Assembly: GCA_000165425.1 (NCBI GenBank)
Contig: CT867985.1
Coordinates: 496,001 to 560,000, forward strand
Source of the DNA: Paramecium tetraurelia
Lineage: Eukaryota
Direction of reading: 5' to 3'
DNA: 64,000 nucleotides
Below are positions 1 through 39,747 of the stretch, piece after piece (positions within the stretch are counted from its first letter, which is position 1; each line of letters opens with the position of its first letter). The translations under genes and the position numbers were made by a program. The notes below the pieces were generated by a model, which was given only the letters and a program-made list of their open reading frames with translations, was not told the DNA's origin and did not search any database.

Positions 1-2046
1 ATTCTTCCTTTAACTCAATATGGCTGCTATGGTGACTCCTTCATATGCACATCCAATTATGTTACAATACATAATGAATCTTGTTAAGAAGATATCAATG
101 GGCATATCACCCATCATTTATCCCAACCTAGTTATATGGATGGTTGAATCTTGAGAGTTTGGATAAGAGAGAGCCCCTAACATTTAGAGATTGGAGATGG
201 CATTCTCAATTTATTTAGTGCTTGGAGGGTCAATAGCAGTTTTAAGAGTGCGACTGGGATCATTGAAAACCTACTTTAAATCAACAATTGTATTAAGTTC
301 TAATTTCTCAGTTTTATTTTCATTTTCCATGGATAGTTGATATAATTTCTTCAGTCTCAATATAATAATTTCTAAGGGACATCTCAACATCTCACAAACA
401 GAATATTGTGTCATTTTATTTTTAAATATGGTTTAAGGTATCAAACGAAAACAAGTTCCAGGGAATAAACGTCCAGTCCTTCCCTTTCTTTGATCAGCAG
501 ATGCTTTAGAACAGTATTACAATGCTAACTTTTCTGTTAGATTCTTAGGATTGTATATAATTTCTTTGGTTAAACAGAAATCAATAACAAATCTACAATC
601 CGGAACAGTAATACTACTTTCAGCCACATTTGTGCTTAATATTAATCTTCTTTTTCTCTTGTGAGTCTCATCAAACTCTTTAGGGATAGTGACAGTGCTA
701 TGTAGTATGATAATGATGAATCTCTCTTCCCCAAATTTTTGATAGATCTCTTCTCTAATATCCATGATTTCTTAATATCCAGGAAGGAAAATCAAGATAG
801 CCCCAGCTCCTTACATGCCTATAGTATCTTTAATTTTATTGGAGTCTAAGAATTCTAGTATTTATAACATGGCTTAGACACTATCCTATTGAACCTTAGG
901 AGTATCTTAAAAGTATAATGAGGTTTGAAATCTTAAAGGTTGATGGAGTTCTAATTTCGCAGTGTCAGCATCATTGAAATATGAATGTATTTCTTCCATA
1001 TAATAAGTTTCAATAGGGTATTTCTAAGACATAGGGACTTTAATAATAGGTGCAGCTTGGTCTTCATCTCCATCCAAGAAATGCTATCCTAATTCTCTTA
1101 ATTCATTCTACTTCTACTCTAATTCTCTCTATTCTTAGGTTAATTGAACTTATCTCTCGATTTCTTTCCATGGTTGACCCCATTGCGTGGAAATGTCATG
1201 ATCTTCTTCCCCTTCAAATTTGATGGATATTTCTACATCATTTTCTTATGTCATATCTGTAAACTTGTACTTTCTATCTACTCTTTGTATATATGTTAGA
1301 TCATCAACCAAATTAAGTGATTTTTTGGAAAAATAGTTAGCAAATTTATCACTGCAGATAGTTGCAGACATCAAAATCAATTTAGTTTCTGGAAAATGCT
1401 TCAATAGATTTTTGATTATGATTAGACAAAAGTCTATGTCAATGTCTCTTTCATGGACTTCATCCATTATAATGTGAGTATAATCTTTCAAGACTTGTTC
1501 TCTGTCATGCACTAATTTTTATAGAAATATTCCTGTGGTTACAAATTAGATTTAGGTTTGTCTAGAACTTATTTGTGAATCCATCCCAACCTAATAGCCA
1601 ACAAGAGTGCCTAATTAACAATCTAACTCCTATGCCACTCTTTTGGCCAATGATTTAGCAGCCAATCTTCTTGGTTGAGTACATAGAATATTCACTGTTT
1701 TTGGTGTTTCGAATTCTGTGTTTGTATGATGCCTCAAAATCATCTGTGGCACTTAGGTTGATTTACCACAACCTGTCCCTCCTGTAATCACAATGACTTA
1801 ATTATTCTGCATTTCTTCCAGAATTTTGTTACTCACATTATATATAGGCAACGCTTTTCGTTCTCTTTCTGTCAGTGGTTTTATAACTCTTTTCCTCAGA
1901 TGAGTCGATTATGATATCTAGGCCTCTTGTTGTTATTATAATGGAATATAATCGCCAAGATTATCATCTTAAGTTCTCACCTTTTTCCTTACTATATCCT
2001 CTACTTAAGATTCCTTCTTCACGACCATTTCTTCCTCCATTTACAT
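1..2046 (-). CDS. DExH-box RNA helicase, Spindle-E/TDRD9-like (3' end beyond window)
   Basis: Ciliate-code ORF from ATG 2046: GGTGCGKSTQVPQ (motif I), TQPRRLAA, DEVHER, MSAT, IFLPG, STNVAESSITVPDCRFVIDFCLTK, QRKGRTGR, EMLRCPLE, then an HA2-like segment. Confidence 0.9.
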
Positions 2047-3248: not shown

Positions 3249-4250
3249 TCATTTTTAAGGTTCCAAAGAAATTGATCTCTAATCTAATTGTTCATCAATT
3301 AATTGATTTTCTTCAGGATCCACCATTTCTCCAGGTTCTCTCTCATCATTAGACTATTGTTATTGAGGTTCCTATTATGAAGTAGAATCTAACTGTTGTT
3401 AGACTTCCTAAGATTCCTATAGTATGATATGATTCTTCATTTCGCTCTCTTATTATTCGCATTGATTTTTATCTGATAATGCAGTGGGTTGATTTAAAAT
3501 AGTTTTTTTGCTATCAGACTGAGTAAAGTTGATGATGGCATTTTTATTTTATTGAATAGGAGGATCCTGTTATTTTTATTCTTCAGCATGAACATAGCTA
3601 GGCTGTTTGTTAGTATCAGTATATTTGGGATTGCGAAGCAGGATCTACTTAATCAATTATGCTCTTTCTACATTATCTTTTCCAGGAGCATAGAATTTGA
3701 TATCTGCGTTATTTTCATGACCTACTATACAATTCTCTAAAAAGTTCATAAAGAGCAATGGAGCAGCCAATTTGAATTGATCGTATTAGTAGAAATCTGA
3801 AATAGGGACTACTCCATCTGCTCTGGGTTTCCATTTGACTTCAAAGACGCAGTCCTCATTTGTTAACATCAAATGTACACTGTCTATTTCATCGCATTTT
3901 TGAGGGTAGGAACTACAAAATTTTTAAGCCATTTCCTTTTATTTGTTTAAGAGAAGTTCTTCAGAATAACTGGGATGTTTGAGACTTTATTAGACTTACT
4001 ACATGACAGGTAATTGTTGTGCTACATTTTTAAGATTTTTTTATTTTTGCTCTTAATATGATTATTAATTCTAAAGGAATTCTTCTAAAATTGAGCGTCG
4101 AACATTTTGTTCATATTCCCAAGTGGTTTAATCAGTTCCTTTCCATTTCATTAAATACTAGATTTGATTGTTTATTAGTCTTTTTTTGAGAATCCTTTCT
4201 GGAGATCGAGGAGTTATTAATTAATAATCCTATTATTTAGTGGGGCGCAT
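3249..4250 (-). CDS. HP1-like protein: chromodomain + chromo-shadow-like domain + Q-rich tail (333 aa)
   Basis: Intronless 1002-nt ORF; ERILKKRLINNQIQYLMKWKGTDQTTWEYEQNV (chromo); FEVKWKPRADGVVP..FKLAAPLLFMNFLENCI (shadow-like). Confidence 0.8.
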
Positions 4251-4923: not shown

Positions 4924-5977
4924 TCATGCATTATTTTCAGCATTCTCTTCTTTCATCTTTTCAATCAGTAAATTCCATTCCTCCAATTATTTGGGATCCG
5001 GCTATTTCTAATGCTCTATCATCTTGAAACATTCATCCTTCGGCTTCGTCTGCTACTACTATTAATGCAATTGCTATAATTTCTATTATTTCCTCTCCTG
5101 CTTCTCCTGATCTGGAGATATTCCCAGATCCCCCAATCTATTAGCTTTCTTAGATCCACCTACTTTCTTACGATTCTGATGTAATTTCATATACTCTTCC
5201 AATGCCTTTCTCTCCCTTATATAGGTTAATTCCTATTATTTTCTTATTTTACAAAACTCTTGTAATTAATGTGTGTTCATCCACTGTCTTGTAATTATCT
5301 TTCTCTTATTCAACCCTTTGTCATCTAGGGGCTCCACCTAAACATTCTGATCCAAATCAAATATGTATTGCTTGTTATTTACATACATTATAAGGAGAGG
5401 CTTCAATTATTAATTATTTTTACTTCTCCCTTGACCATCAAGTCTTCCAATTAATTTTGTATCACTTTTTCATATTGAATCCACGTCTGCCCATTGTAGT
5501 AGGACCACTTGCCTTGCTATATTTTAATTTGCCTTGACACTATGGAGGATTCTCTCCTAATTTTATAATAACTAATTTAATGATGCATGACCATGTGATC
5601 ATAGTCAACTATAAACTACATGTCCTTGAAAATGATCTGGAACTCTCCTTGATTGCAGTAATGAAGCATATTCTCCAGGAGATTGCACCTTCTCCAATCA
5701 AATATTTTCCATTTCCCATCTTCATCCAGGTAAAACCAATCAACATCATGATGTGGGGGTGGGAATGTGCTGATGGTCGGCATTTGCTGGGGCCTATATA
5801 AATAAATAAATAATTGTGTTTGTAATAATACATATCAATAAGTGAAGGTGTAAATGTATATTAAGGCTATAAAAATAAGTATTATAAAAATATACTTGGA
5901 AATCTATATAGCGTATAATATATAAATATAAACTTACATAATGGCTGCACTATTTGAGGAACATTAAATTAGTACAT
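4924..5977 (-). CDS. Tandem WWE-domain protein
   Basis: After removing 5 small introns: WFYLDEDGKWKIFD..LE..IVDYDHMVM..KIRRE and WSYYNGQTWIQYE..LE..YIFDLDQNVQ. Confidence 0.7.
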
Positions 5978-34550: not shown

Positions 34551-37500
34551 ATGTCAAATACTGCTAATAAGAATGCCCCTGCTCCTAAATTGAAGAAAGA
34601 AAGTACAAATTAATCAACGACCAAGCTAACATCTTCGACTATTAAGAAACAACCGTAATATATTATTTAATTTAAGAGTTTAATAAACCTAAAAAGCAAA
34701 TGAGCCTCCTTAAAAGAAAATTGCAAACACTGATTCATTGCTTGAAAAAACTTCTGAGTCAGCATAGGCTGCCAAATCAACTAAAGTTGTTCGAACTACA
34801 ACAAGATCAATCACTACAAAATTAGACGATGGAAAACTTAAGCAACCAGCTGAATTGACAAATAAATAAGATTCTACTTAAAATAAGAATTCAAAAAAAT
34901 AAACTTTAAAACCTGGTAAACAGCAGGATAAACAAAAAGTGGAACAATAAAAAGAATAAGTTTAAACTAAGGGTCAAGGTGTAATAAAATCATAAGATGA
35001 TACTAATTCATAAGTATCAAATTAGTTTGATAAAACAACAGATATAAACAACTCAATTATAGAATAAGATTAAATTTAAGAGAATTATAATTAAGATACG
35101 ACAGAAGCAAATAATTAGGATAGTATATTGAATGAAGAATAATTTTAATATAGAAGTTAAACAAATTAATCACTAACTGAAAACGTAAATGAATCAGTTA
35201 ATCCAGATTATGATGGAGATAATTTATAGTCTGTTAAGGAAAATGATGTAAATGATGATGATAAATCTCCTTACAAGGATGTTAGTTTAATGGAGTATGA
35301 TGAGATAGATGATTAAAATATAGAAGAAAATTAAAATATATAAGATGAATAAAATGAGGTTAATGAAATAATGAAATAAAACTAGGAGCAAGAAAAATAA
35401 GTAGAAATGGAAGGGAATGAAAATAAAAAATAAGAGAAGGAAATATATTAAAAATTAGAAATAAAAAATGAATAACCTGCAAATATAATAAATGAATAAG
35501 TTGAAGAAACAAATTAATAAGATAATATAGGTTTGGAAGGATAATAAAAAGATATATAACTAAAAGTGAAAAAAATTATCGATTTAAATAACGAAATAAA
35601 AATAAATAATAATGAATAACATGTTGAACAATAAGTTGAAAATTAATAGGAAAAGGAAATTATCCATTAAGTAGAACATGTGATTGAATAACATCATTAA
35701 GAATAAGTAGAAAATTTTTAAGAACATGTTGAATAATAAGTTGAAAATTAATAAGAAAGGGAAATTATCCATTAAGTAGAACATGTGATTGAATAACATC
35801 ATTAAAAATAAGTAGAAAATCAGTAAGAACATGTTGAATAATAAGTTGAAAATTAATAAGAGAAGGAAATTATTCATTAAGAATAACAATAAGTAGAGCA
35901 AGTGGTTGAATAACATCATTAAGAATAAGTAGAAAATCAGTAAGAACATGTTGAATAATAAGTTGAAAATTAATAAGAAAGGGAAATTATCCATTAAGTA
36001 GAACATGTGATTGAATAACATCATTAAGAATAAGTAGAAAATCATTAAGAACATGTTGAACAATAAGTTGAAATTTAATAAGAGAAGGAAATTATTCATT
36101 AAGAATAACAATAAGTAGAGCAAGTGGTTGAATAACATCATTAAGAATAAGTAGAAAATCATTAAGAACATGTTGAATAATAAGTTGAAAATTAATAAGA
36201 GAAGGAAATTATTCATTAAGAATAACAATAAGTAGAGCAAGTGGTTGAATAACATCATTAAGAATAAGTAGAAAATCATTAAGAACATGTTGAATAATAA
36301 GTTGAAATTTAATAAGAGAAGGAAATTATTCATTAAGAATAACAATAAGTAGAGCAAGTGGTTGAATAACATCATTAAGAATAAGTAGAAAATCATTAAG
36401 AACATGTTGAATAATAAGTTGAAAATTAATAAGAGAAGGAAATTATTCATTAAGAATAACAATAAGTAGAGCAAGTGGTTGAATAACATCATTAAGAATA
36501 AGTAGAAAATCATTAAGAACATGTTGAATAATAAGTTGAAAATTAATAAGAGAAGGAAATTATTCATTAAGAATAACAATAAGTAGAGCAAGTGGTTGAA
36601 TAACATCATTAAGAATAAGTAGAAAATCATTAAGAACATGTTGAATAATAAGTTGAAAATTAATAAGAGAAGGAAATTATCCATTAAGTAGAACATGTGA
36701 TTGAATAACATCATTAAGAATAAGTAGAAAATCATTAAGAACATGTTGAATAATAAGTTGAAAATTAAATAAGAGAAGGAAATTCATTCATTAAGAATAA
36801 CAATAAGTAGAGCAAGTGGTTGAATAACATCATTAAGAATAAGTAGAAAATCATTCAAGAACATGTTGCTTAATAAGTTGAAAATTAATAAGAACAGGGA
36901 AATTATCCATTAAGTAGAACATGTGATTGAATAACATCATTATGAATAAGTAGAAAATTTTTAAGAACATGTTGAATAATAAGTTGAAAATTAATAAGAA
37001 AGGGAAATTATCCATTAAGTAGAACATGTGATTGAATAACATCATAAAGAATAAGTAGAAAATCATTAAGAACATGTTGAATAATAAGTTGAAAATTAAT
37101 AAGAGAAGGAAATTATTCATTAAGAATAACAATAAGTAGAGCAAGTGGTTGAATAACATCATTAAGAATAAGTAGAAAATCATTAAGAACATGTTGAATA
37201 ATAAGTTGAAAATTAATAAGAGAAGGAAATTATCCATTAAGTAGAACATGTGATTGAATAACATCATTAAGAATAAGTAGAAAATCATTAAGAACATGTT
37301 GAATAATAAGTTGAAAATTAATAAGAGAAGGAAATTATTCATTAAGAATAACAATAAGTAGAGCAAGTGGTTGAATAACATCATTAAGAATAAGTAGAAA
37401 ATCATTAAGAACATGTTGAACAATAAGTTGAAATTTAATAAGAGAAGGAAATTATTCATTAAGAATAACAATAAGTAGAGCAAGTGGTTGAATAACATCA

Positions 37501-39747
37501 TTAAGAATAAGTAGAAAATCATGAAGAACACGTTGAACAATAAGTTGAAATTTAATAAGAGAAGGAAATTATTCATTAAGAATAACAATAAGTAGAGCAC
37601 GTGGTTGAATAACATCATTAAGAATAAGTAGAAAATCATGAAGAACATGTTGAATAATAAGTTGAAAATTAATAGGAAAAGGAAATTATCCATTAAGTAG
37701 AACATGTGATTGAATAACATCATTAAGAATAAGTAGAAAATCATTAAGAACATGTTGAACAATAAGTTGAAATTTAATAAGAGAAGGAAATTATTCATTA
37801 AGAATAACAATAAGTAGAGCAAGTGGTTGAATAACATCATTAAGAATAAGTAGAAAATCATTAAGAACATGTTGAACAATAAGTTGAAATTTAATAAGAG
37901 AAGGAAATTATTCATTAAGAATAACAATAAGTAGAGCACGTGGTTGAATAACATCATTAAGAATAAGTAGAAAATCATGAAGAACATGTTGAATAATAAG
38001 TTGAAAATTAATAAGAAAGGGAAATTATCCATTAAGTAGAACATGTGATTGAATAACATCATTAAGAATAAGTAGAAAATCATGAAGAACATGTTGAATA
38101 ATAAGTTGAAAATTAATAGGAAAAGGAAATTATCCATTAAGTAGAACATGTGATTGAATAACATCTTTAAGAATAAGTAGAAAATCATGAAGAACATGTT
38201 GAATAATAAGTTGAAAATTAATAAGAAAGGGAAATTATCCATTAAGAATAACAATAAGTAGAGCAAGTGGTTGAATAACATCATTATGAATAAGTAGAAA
38301 ATCATTAAGAACATGTTGAACAATAAGTTGAAATTTAATAAGAGAAGGAAATTATTCATTAAAAATAACAATAAGTATAGCCTGTGATTGAACATCATAA
38401 CTAATAATCATTTGAAAATCATTAAGAATATATTGAACAACGAGGAAAATTTTAATAAGAAACAGAAATAATTCTTTAAACTACTACTATCTAAAACTAT
38501 CAGTAATAATTACTAATCTCAAATCTTATAAAAACCTATCGAAAAGTAAGTTTTTGAGTTTATAAGAATAAGTTATATTTAATTAAGATTAAAAGAATGT
38601 TGATTAAATTTAACCCATTAACCAACACACCATTTCAAGAAATCATAAGCCCTTATATTTTTAATAGTAACCTGGATATATAAAATTAAACCCCAACCCG
38701 GAGTAGATAAAATATTTTAAAATTAAACCAAATTAATAAAAACCCTGAAAAAATTCCTTAAGTNNNNNNNNNNNNNNNNNNNNNNNNNNNNNNNNNNNNN
38801 NNNNNNNNNNNNNNNNNNNNNNNNNNNNNNNNNNNNNNNNNNNNNNNNNNNNNNNNNNNNNNNNNNNNNNNNNNNNNNNNNNNNNNNNNNNNNNNNNNNN
38901 NNNNNNNNNNNNNTAAAAGAATGTTGATTAAACTTAACCATAAACAAACACACCATTTCAAGAATCATAAGCCTTATATTCTTAATAGTAACATGATTAA
39001 TAAAAATAAAACCCAGCCGTAGTAGATTAATAAAATAAAATTTAAACAAATTAATAATAACCTGAATAAATCTCTTAAGATTAAATAAGCAATAATGATG
39101 ATTCAATATTTGCTGGGTTAATAGTTCAAAATGTATCTCAGTCATCTTCTAGTTCTAAAGATACTAATAATATTAATTAGTTCGAAACAAATCCAAAATC
39201 ATTGGATTCACTATAACAAAACCAATAACAAACTAACATAAGTAATACTTAGATCATAAATAATATTGTTATTGAAAATAAAAATTCTCAATAAAATGAA
39301 AATAATCATCCAACTTTAGATATTAATTAAAAAAATCAAAACCAATAAAATAAATTTAAAGAAATGTAAATAAATGATAATTTAGATTATAAATCAGGTT
39401 AAAATACCAACAGATTTGAAAAATACTAGGAAATTGAAGACCAGAATTAAACTCAAGATATGATTGAATAAAGCTAATATTTATAAGATGATAAAACAGA
39501 TTTATTATATAAAAACTAAAGCTAAGGAAATGATTAAATAACTGATTATAATCTAACTTAAGCTGATGAAAGTAAAAACGAAAAATAACAATATAAAGAT
39601 TAGAAAGTTTAAAATATAGTATAAGTTTAGTAAAATGATCATATCATAGATATAAAATAAGTTAATCAGACACCATCCACTAATTTACAAGAGAATAAGC
39701 AATAAAAAAAAAAAACATTAATTTGTAAATGTTGCTAGATATTTTGA
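34551..39747 (+). CDS. Large acidic E/Q/H/V tandem-repeat protein with polybasic CaaX end (assembly has frameshifts and a gap)
   Basis: ATG 34551, 22-nt intron, basic N-terminus, repeat core, ends KKKTLICKCCQIF* (TGA 39745-39747). Confidence 0.7.
35614..38400 (+). repeat. Coding minisatellite of interspersed 117-nt (39 aa) and 105-nt (35 aa) units, about 25 copies
   Basis: EHVEQQVENQQEKEIIHQEQQQVEQVVEQHHQEQVENHQ and EHVEQQVENQQEREIIHQVEHVIEQHHQEQVENHQ. Confidence 0.95.
38764..38913. other. Assembly gap (150 N)
   Basis: Run of N. Confidence 1.

Follow-up and report, generated by a model that had tools for sequence, protein, structure and literature searches.

The first 2,046 nucleotides of the 64,000-nt stretch of Paramecium tetraurelia DNA analysed here (the window, G000:C2:496001-560000) encode the N-terminal part of a DExH helicase. 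Is this helicase a relative of Ema1, the ciliate factor of scnRNA-guided DNA elimination, or a separate component of the Piwi pathway, and does it belong with the animal piRNA helicases TDRD9 and Spindle-E (Spn-E)? The original prediction, made from the window alone, was of a TDRD9/Spindle-E-type helicase and candidate small-RNA genome-defence factor, with the relationship to Ema1 left undecided. We conclude with considerable confidence that the gene is EMA1 of Paramecium and is likely the copy EMA1a, that its product groups with TDRD9/Spn-E, and that the protein likely acts in an ATP-driven manner on nascent RNA, where it would enable pairing and chromatin retention of Ptiwi01/09-scnRNA complexes.

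The gene and its duplicate

An ATG at window position 2046 opens a frame of 682 codons (NCBI code 6) that runs on the minus strand from 2046 to 1 and leaves the window. This portion (window 1..2046) holds codons 1-682 of a 1472-aa protein, which is under half of the gene; the remainder lies at G000:C2:496000-493603, also on the minus strand. A second copy is found on contig C677. In each copy the unspliced frame is 1446 codons (4341 nt) long, and the two frames are collinear, with 89.5% DNA identity. We dropped the intronless 1446-aa reading because excision of a 25-nt GT-AG intron, the only one in the gene (C2:493801-493777, minus strand, beyond the window), gives exactly the 1472-aa database records of both copies. 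The 25 intron letters are missing from the contig of one run, which we guess to be RNA, and exon 2 codes for a C2H2 finger absent from the unspliced translation. Raw RNA reads on a 6-kb stretch numbered 638, 415 and 103 in three runs and were nearly all in the sense of the minus-strand gene; some likely derive from the duplicate, and the stage of the runs is not stated, so that they speak for sense transcription without timing. At window position 1968 there is a C, whereas all four runs examined have a T, giving D27 here and N27 there. Either strains differ at this base or the assembly is wrong here.

Judged by sequence, the gene and its duplicate are the EMA1a/EMA1b pair, and our finding is a rediscovery of a known gene, since the two copies reproduce the published identity figures for EMA1a and EMA1b. 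In PMC11724296, the EMA1 RNAi fragment is nt 163-1176 of EMA1a/PTMB.220, with 88% identity to EMA1b and 193 nt at 100%. The matching segment of the coding sequence, window 871..1884 on the minus strand, is identical between the copies at 893 of 1014 positions (88.07%). Its perfect runs total 193 nt (six runs, for thresholds of 20-23 nt), an agreement that depends on adding the runs together; no single run exceeds 39 nt. The proteins EMA1a and EMA1b are reported to be 93.21% identical (bioRxiv 2021.08.12.456067). The same value (1372/1472) is obtained when database record P0126, which is one residue off the window protein (D27N), is compared with the duplicate; the window's own D27 protein gives 93.14%, not 93.21%. 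With three published figures reproduced, we take these to be the genes for Ema1a and Ema1b; the difference noted is the one base that gives D27 here and N27 in P0126 and the four runs. PTMB.220 also appears in an early-peak list of autogamy genes, as the orthologue of Tetrahymena EMA1 (PMC3091696), and the top-scoring named matches of the window protein are Tetrahymena proteins. EMA1a goes by the identifiers PTET.51.1.G0010313, GSPATT00000299001 and PTMB.220 (PMC11724296, PMC3091696). The choice between an Ema1 relative and a separate Piwi-pathway helicase is settled by this comparison: the gene is Paramecium EMA1 itself.

Which of the two copies lies in the window? The DNA and protein fingerprints read the same from either copy, and point to the pair without telling its members apart. 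The window gene is on a contig of 981,684 bases and the duplicate on one of 739,885 bases, and we take the names G0010313, GSPATT00000299001 and PTMB.220 to denote, by convention, the largest chromosome. On the strength of the larger contig and this naming convention, the window copy is likely EMA1a. That it is EMA1b would be compatible with fingerprints shared symmetrically by two collinear frames, but is very unlikely given that the window belongs to the near-megabase contig and the duplicate to the 740-kb one, and that the EMA1a identifiers point, by the naming convention, to the largest chromosome.

Two neighbours of the gene are also present in the duplicate region. A gene about 1.2 kb upstream (window 3249-4250, minus strand; L005 3547-4632, minus strand, in the duplicate region) encodes a chromodomain (Pfam Chromo, E 8.8e-6); a second block near aa 125-175 resembles a chromo shadow domain, and the protein is possibly HP1-like. 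The other gene, at window position 4924-5783 approximately (minus strand), encodes a WWE domain (Pfam E 1e-7). After the duplicate gene, a 963-codon frame (L004 2538-5426, minus strand) looks like an insulinase-type peptidase and is without a counterpart at the equivalent place after the window gene. Farther along, window 35001-38000 is strongly skewed in the positive direction (GC skew of 0.42-0.47, AT skew of about 0.3), and probably holds a long plus-strand gene rich in lysine and glutamate.

Relationship to TDRD9 and Spindle-E

The protein has the features of a DEAH/RHA helicase: motifs I, II (DExH), III, V and VI are intact and are followed by HA2. All features in this and the next paragraph are on the minus strand of the window. 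The RecA1 domain (Pfam DEAD, aa 74-230, E 1.5e-10; 1357..1827) includes motif I (GGTGCGKST, 1782-1756), motif II (DEVH, 1464-1453) and motif III (SAT, 1368-1360). The RecA2 domain (Pfam Helicase_C, aa 411-527, E 5.6e-10; 466..816) includes motif V (STNVAESSITV, 636-604), which is near-invariant across 48 relatives, and motif VI (QRKGRTGR, 492-469). The winged-helix part of HA2 (aa 616-650; 97..201) matches Pfam HA2_N with an E-value of 0.01, below the curated cut-off.

Four strings had been put forward as signs of TDRD9/Spn-E, and all of them occur in frame: VGYQVG (aa 149-154; 1602-1585), TGIFLQKLV (aa 171-179; 1536-1510), VIDFCLTK (aa 487-494; 588-565) and EMLRCPL (aa 552-558; 393-373). We compared residues across 48 non-animal Ema1-like proteins, 70 TDRD9/Spn-E proteins and 155 other DEAH/RHA cores. 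VGYQVG and VIDFCLTK discriminate, but TGIFLQKLV and EMLRCPL barely do so, being mostly generic: G172, L175, E552, R555 and L558 are common to all three groups. Position 154 is Gly here, as in TDRD9/Spn-E, and is Arg in 149/155 other DEAH/RHA cores and 0/70 TDRD9 proteins. Phe at position 490 occurs in 44/48 Ema1-like and 70/70 TDRD9/Spn-E proteins, while the others have mostly Ser (49), Thr (46) or Cys (35). Position 491 is Cys in 38/48 and 64/70 proteins of these two groups, respectively, and Gly in 139/155 others. Ser477 (in AESS), a marker absent from the original prediction, is present in 48/48 Ema1-like proteins, 70/70 TDRD9/Spn-E proteins and 5/155 others. We regard Gly154, Ser477 and Phe490-Cys491 as the diagnostic residues. 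The RF motif of MLE presumably maps to G154-M155 of the window protein. We set aside the loss of the hook-turn Arg as a mechanistic novelty, since the RF motif is absent from the non-MLE DExH-box helicases compared in PMC5262380, where it was found in MLE only.

Relatives for the phylogeny were the best 120 of 5918 matches, from 8000 candidates scored. Among the matches listed, 69 fall in the animal TDRD9/Spn-E clade, and 45 join the two Paramecium proteins in a non-animal clade; P0033 is unplaced beside the latter, and there is one DHX57 and one DHX9. P0006 was omitted for internal duplication, and P0125 and P0130 were substituted for P0004 and P0005. Five of the 46 non-animal relatives have a stated taxon, and all five are ciliates (three Tetrahymena, Stylonychia and Moneuplotes); for most, “ciliate-like” is an assumption. 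To these we added 148 further representatives (one was dropped), some of which are named or domain-typed as DHX29, DHX36, DHX9, DHX57, YTHDC2 or plant DExH6. A mixed-profile search for outgroups was set aside, having yielded almost only insect DHX57; the representative search gave diverse outgroups.

The trees united Ema1 with TDRD9/Spn-E. With FastTree (164 rows), five Ema1-like and four TDRD9 rows were joined with support of 100. With IQ-TREE (LG+C20, 41 chosen rows, 552 columns), 11 Ema1-like and eight TDRD9/Spn-E rows were joined at 100/100 on a stem of 0.71, and the Ema1 branches were long (stem of 0.89). When the 11 Ema1-like rows were forced into one group with seven DHX29/DHX57/fungal rows, the tree was worse by 147 log units (AU test, p-AU 0.000138); this constraint covered DHX29, DHX57 and the fungal rows, and no tree row was identified as DHX30 or DHX34. 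The core thus lies in one clade with TDRD9/Spn-E and not with DHX29/36/57 or splicing helicases, and a DHX29/57 grouping is rejected. The top Tetrahymena thermophila match of the window protein, P0008 (37% over the best stretch), is sister to the Paramecium pair (94/68) inside a clade supported at 97/97. P0008 shares the beta-tent motif and C2H2 finger described below, differs by its 1769 aa with long insertions, and is presumably Tetrahymena Ema1p.

Profile searches of the PDB agree with the trees. A profile of the 45 non-animal sequences placed Spindle-E (9nhs_G, 749 bits) first by 199 bits, with DHX29 at 550, DHX36 at 494-531 and DHX9/MLE at 498-504 bits; the single window protein gave a near-tie between Spindle-E (254.5 bits) and DHX29 (253.9 bits). 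In the Atlas, the closest named clusters to the whole protein were DHX34, others being unnamed, and the C-terminus of one relative returned nothing above 0.75. Genome-wide, none of the 29-30 candidates that we scored was of the DHX9/29/36/57 type. Other DEAH loci in the genome look like Prp2, Prp16, Prp22, Prp43 and ribosome-biogenesis types. TDRD9 retrieves both Paramecium genes first, but we discounted this reciprocal best match as evidence because no competing DHX9/29/36/57-group gene was seen in the genome.

The C-terminal half

The original prediction pointed to the 3ʹ end of the gene as the place to look for Tudor or zinc-finger domains. We scored C-terminal profiles, built from the non-animal alignment, on 48 non-animal proteins, 71 TDRD9/Spn-E proteins and 269 controls that include more than 100 insect DHX57 sequences; scores on the 48 non-animal proteins are circular. 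The profile of a block at aa 990-1160 (C2:495079-494567, minus strand, beyond the window) scores at least 20 bits in 68/71 TDRD9/Spn-E proteins and reaches 10 bits in 0/269 controls. A structural model of aa 780-1415 (mean pLDDT 69) has a single Foldseek match below 0.001, which is Spindle-E 9nhs_G (Z 14.9, rmsd 4.9, 325 residues); the next match is DHX29 (Z 9.5, rmsd 3.2, 148 residues). A C2H2 finger was indeed found, at aa 1429-1460 (C2:493737-493642, minus strand, beyond the window; ligands C1429, C1432, H1454 and H1460). This finger is common with Spn-E: its non-animal profile scores at least 10 bits in 52/71 animal proteins and in 0/269 controls. C-terminal C2H2 fingers also score in TDRD9 of sea urchin (P0091), crinoid (P0058), scallop (P0062) and amphioxus (P0119). 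The Spn-E finger was taken as unique to Drosophila after a check of vertebrates (PMC4232550).

The TDRD9/Spindle-E-type call is therefore supported by trees, profile scores and structure comparison. DHX29, DHX36, DHX57, DHX9 and YTHDC2 have the DEAH/RHA core and the ratchet/OB architecture in common with Ema1, but they lie outside the Ema1+TDRD9 clade, are without the C-terminal block, and mostly retain Arg154, AET and D-x-G. That Ema1 is a fast-evolving DHX29/36/57-type helicase, drawn to TDRD9 by long branches, is scarcely credible and already largely refuted: it would suit a genome with no other such locus among the candidates scored and the single-sequence tie with DHX29, but it is opposed by the AU test, by the AESS and DFC residues common with TDRD9/Spn-E, and by the block and finger outside the core that no control has, a C-terminal homology that is independent of the tree. 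Ema1 and its relatives group with animal TDRD9/Spindle-E, which is likely the direct counterpart of Ema1; we infer that the two are true orthologues, as opposed to sister paralogues or the product of a transfer.

A Tudor domain was not found. There is no Pfam Tudor match, and a profile of the animal TDRD9 Tudor region scores in 0/48 non-animal proteins, compared with 52/71 animal proteins. Hence, we class Ema1 as a Tudor-less sister group and not as a TDRD protein. In animals, the Tudor region is missing from 19/71 rows, some of them fragments, and many ant Spn-E copies are likewise without it. Two forms of Spindle-E occur in ants, one Tudor-less and about 1200 aa long, the other with a Tudor domain and about 1400 aa long; Monomorium pharaonis has both (P0032, P0101).

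A further domain, at aa 1255-1400 (C2:494284-493847, minus strand, beyond the window), scores with its profile in 37/48 non-animal, 0/71 animal and 0/269 control proteins. Structural modelling predicts a zinc beta-tent domain. This prediction is based on the consistency of middling-score matches together with a conserved CxxC...C-x3/4-H pattern (C1261, C1264, C1352 and H1357) that fits a zinc site. When a model of aa 1216-1415 (pLDDT 74) was compared with 48,161 chains, beta-tent proteins came out on top, including TCTP (Z 6.0), RIG-I (5.1), Mis18 (5.0), MDA5 (5.0), LGP2 (4.9), DRH-1 (4.8), MsrB and cereblon; judging by their titles, we take 20 of the 22 top chains to be proteins with this fold. 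The likeness to known beta-tent domains (TCTP/Mss4, Mis18/Yippee, the C-terminal domain of RIG-I/MDA5/LGP2/DRH, cereblon and MsrB) is one of predicted fold, with Z values of 3.3-6.0 and no higher, an rmsd of 3.7 over 114 aligned residues for the best match, identities of 4-13% and a Foldseek E-value of 0.03 at best; Pfam gave no Yippee, RIG-I or Tudor match in 16 relatives. The domain may have a binding role, and RNA as the bound partner is our guess. Together, the likeness between Ema1 and animal TDRD9/Spn-E consists of one clade, the motif residues, the post-Tudor block, the C-terminal finger and the best structure match, whereas non-animal members differ in being without Tudor (48/48) and in having the predicted beta-tent domain (37/48 versus 0/71).

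Function of Ema1 and the parallel with animal PIWI complexes

What does this helicase do? The suggested role in small-RNA genome defence agrees with published work on EMA1, which concerns scnRNA selection and DNA elimination. Ema1, which published work terms a “putative” helicase, co-purifies with Ptiwi09 and Gtsf1 (PMC11724296). Knock-down of EMA1, by RNAi expected to affect both copies, takes Ptiwi09 and Gtsf1 off the chromatin of the maternal macronucleus; Ptiwi09 is then no longer ubiquitylated, and scnRNA selection, DNA elimination and the survival of progeny are all impaired. Ptiwi09 ubiquitylation requires both Ema1 and Gtsf1, but Ptiwi09 stays on chromatin upon GTSF1 knock-down. In Tetrahymena, Ema1 promotes scnRNA-lncRNA pairing (PMC10830130, PMC3105430) and EMA1 is co-expressed with TWI1 (PMC2636879). 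Early-autogamy expression and an RNAi phenotype are already in print, as opposed to constitutive expression and no phenotype.

We propose that Ema1 moves along nascent macronuclear RNA using ATP, and would thereby enable Ptiwi01/09-scnRNA to pair with this RNA and to stay on chromatin. Complexes that match a target would then undergo ubiquitylation, with Gtsf1 taking part, and be destroyed, which would leave germline-specific scnRNAs to guide DNA elimination. ATP-driven translocation on RNA is suggested by analogy with the DEAH/RHA family, and Ema1 presumably contacts Ptiwi09 directly.

The parallel with animals suggests another order of events. PDB entry 9NHS is, by its title, a SIWI-piRNA-target-GTSF1-Maelstrom-Spindle-E complex (bioRxiv 10.64898/2025.12.12.693873; De 2025, as cited also in PMC13269885). 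Ema1 could likewise dock late, in the manner of silkworm Spindle-E, on target-engaged Piwi with Gtsf1 and possibly a Maelstrom-like partner, and remodel or release the complex for degradation. Ema1 matches Spindle-E of 9NHS best in structure as well as in profile score, and both the co-purification of Ema1 with Ptiwi09 and Gtsf1 and the requirement of the two for Ptiwi09 ubiquitylation are consistent with late docking. Nonetheless, we consider it rather unlikely. Chromatin binding of Ptiwi09 depends on Ema1 and not on Gtsf1, which places Ema1 upstream of Gtsf1; the Tudor region is found in none of the 48 non-animal members; and the Maelstrom-like partner is hypothetical in Paramecium, where a genome search with Pfam PF13017 gave no candidate but was equally silent for its controls. 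Both Ema1 and animal TDRD9/Spn-E are described as working with Piwi and Gtsf1, but the place of Ema1 action is macronuclear chromatin, at a step before Gtsf1, whereas Spn-E serves the ping-pong cycle in nuage and joins a complex formed with GTSF1 and Maelstrom. SIWI-GTSF1-Spindle-E parallels Ptiwi09-Gtsf1-Ema1, but not one-to-one, Ema1 being upstream of Gtsf1 and having no Tudor domain.

It is improbable that Ema1 works mainly as a scaffold, holding Ptiwi09, PRC2 and condensin on chromatin independently of ATP, and that its motor is secondary. Ema1a has been found in Gtsf1/PRC2 and condensin I pull-downs (two preprints), and silkworm Spn-E has an ATPase-independent role besides an ATPase-dependent one (PMC11094040). 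However, all five helicase motifs named above are intact, with motif V near-invariant among the relatives, and in fly Spn-E the helicase-domain mutants are mostly severe, whereas the finger mutant is mild (PMC4232550). Our preferred reading is that of a helicase that likely acts by an ATP-driven mechanism on nascent RNA.

We found no statement of orthology between Ema1 and Spindle-E/TDRD9 in the literature searched, with the founding papers, most subscription journals and some supplements outside that search; this evolutionary link is possibly unreported, and may well be in print. The remaining value of our analysis is comparative, and lies in the Spindle-E link, the missing Tudor domain and the predicted beta-tent domain. 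Placement with Spindle-E/TDRD9 supplies guides for Ema1, namely 9NHS, the characterised fly alleles and the silkworm ATPase mutants, and draws attention to two predicted zinc modules in the C-terminal half. More tentatively, and with the balance of doubt against it, Ema1 could be the true ciliate orthologue of Spindle-E/TDRD9, and the Piwi-Gtsf1-helicase machine could predate the animal-ciliate split, with ciliates having no Tudor domain and a RIG-I-like zinc beta-tent domain gripping RNA or the Piwi complex. If this is true, the silkworm complex would be a template for scnRNA scanning of nascent transcripts, and the helicase would join Piwi and Gtsf1 as parts common to DNA elimination in ciliates and piRNA silencing in animals.
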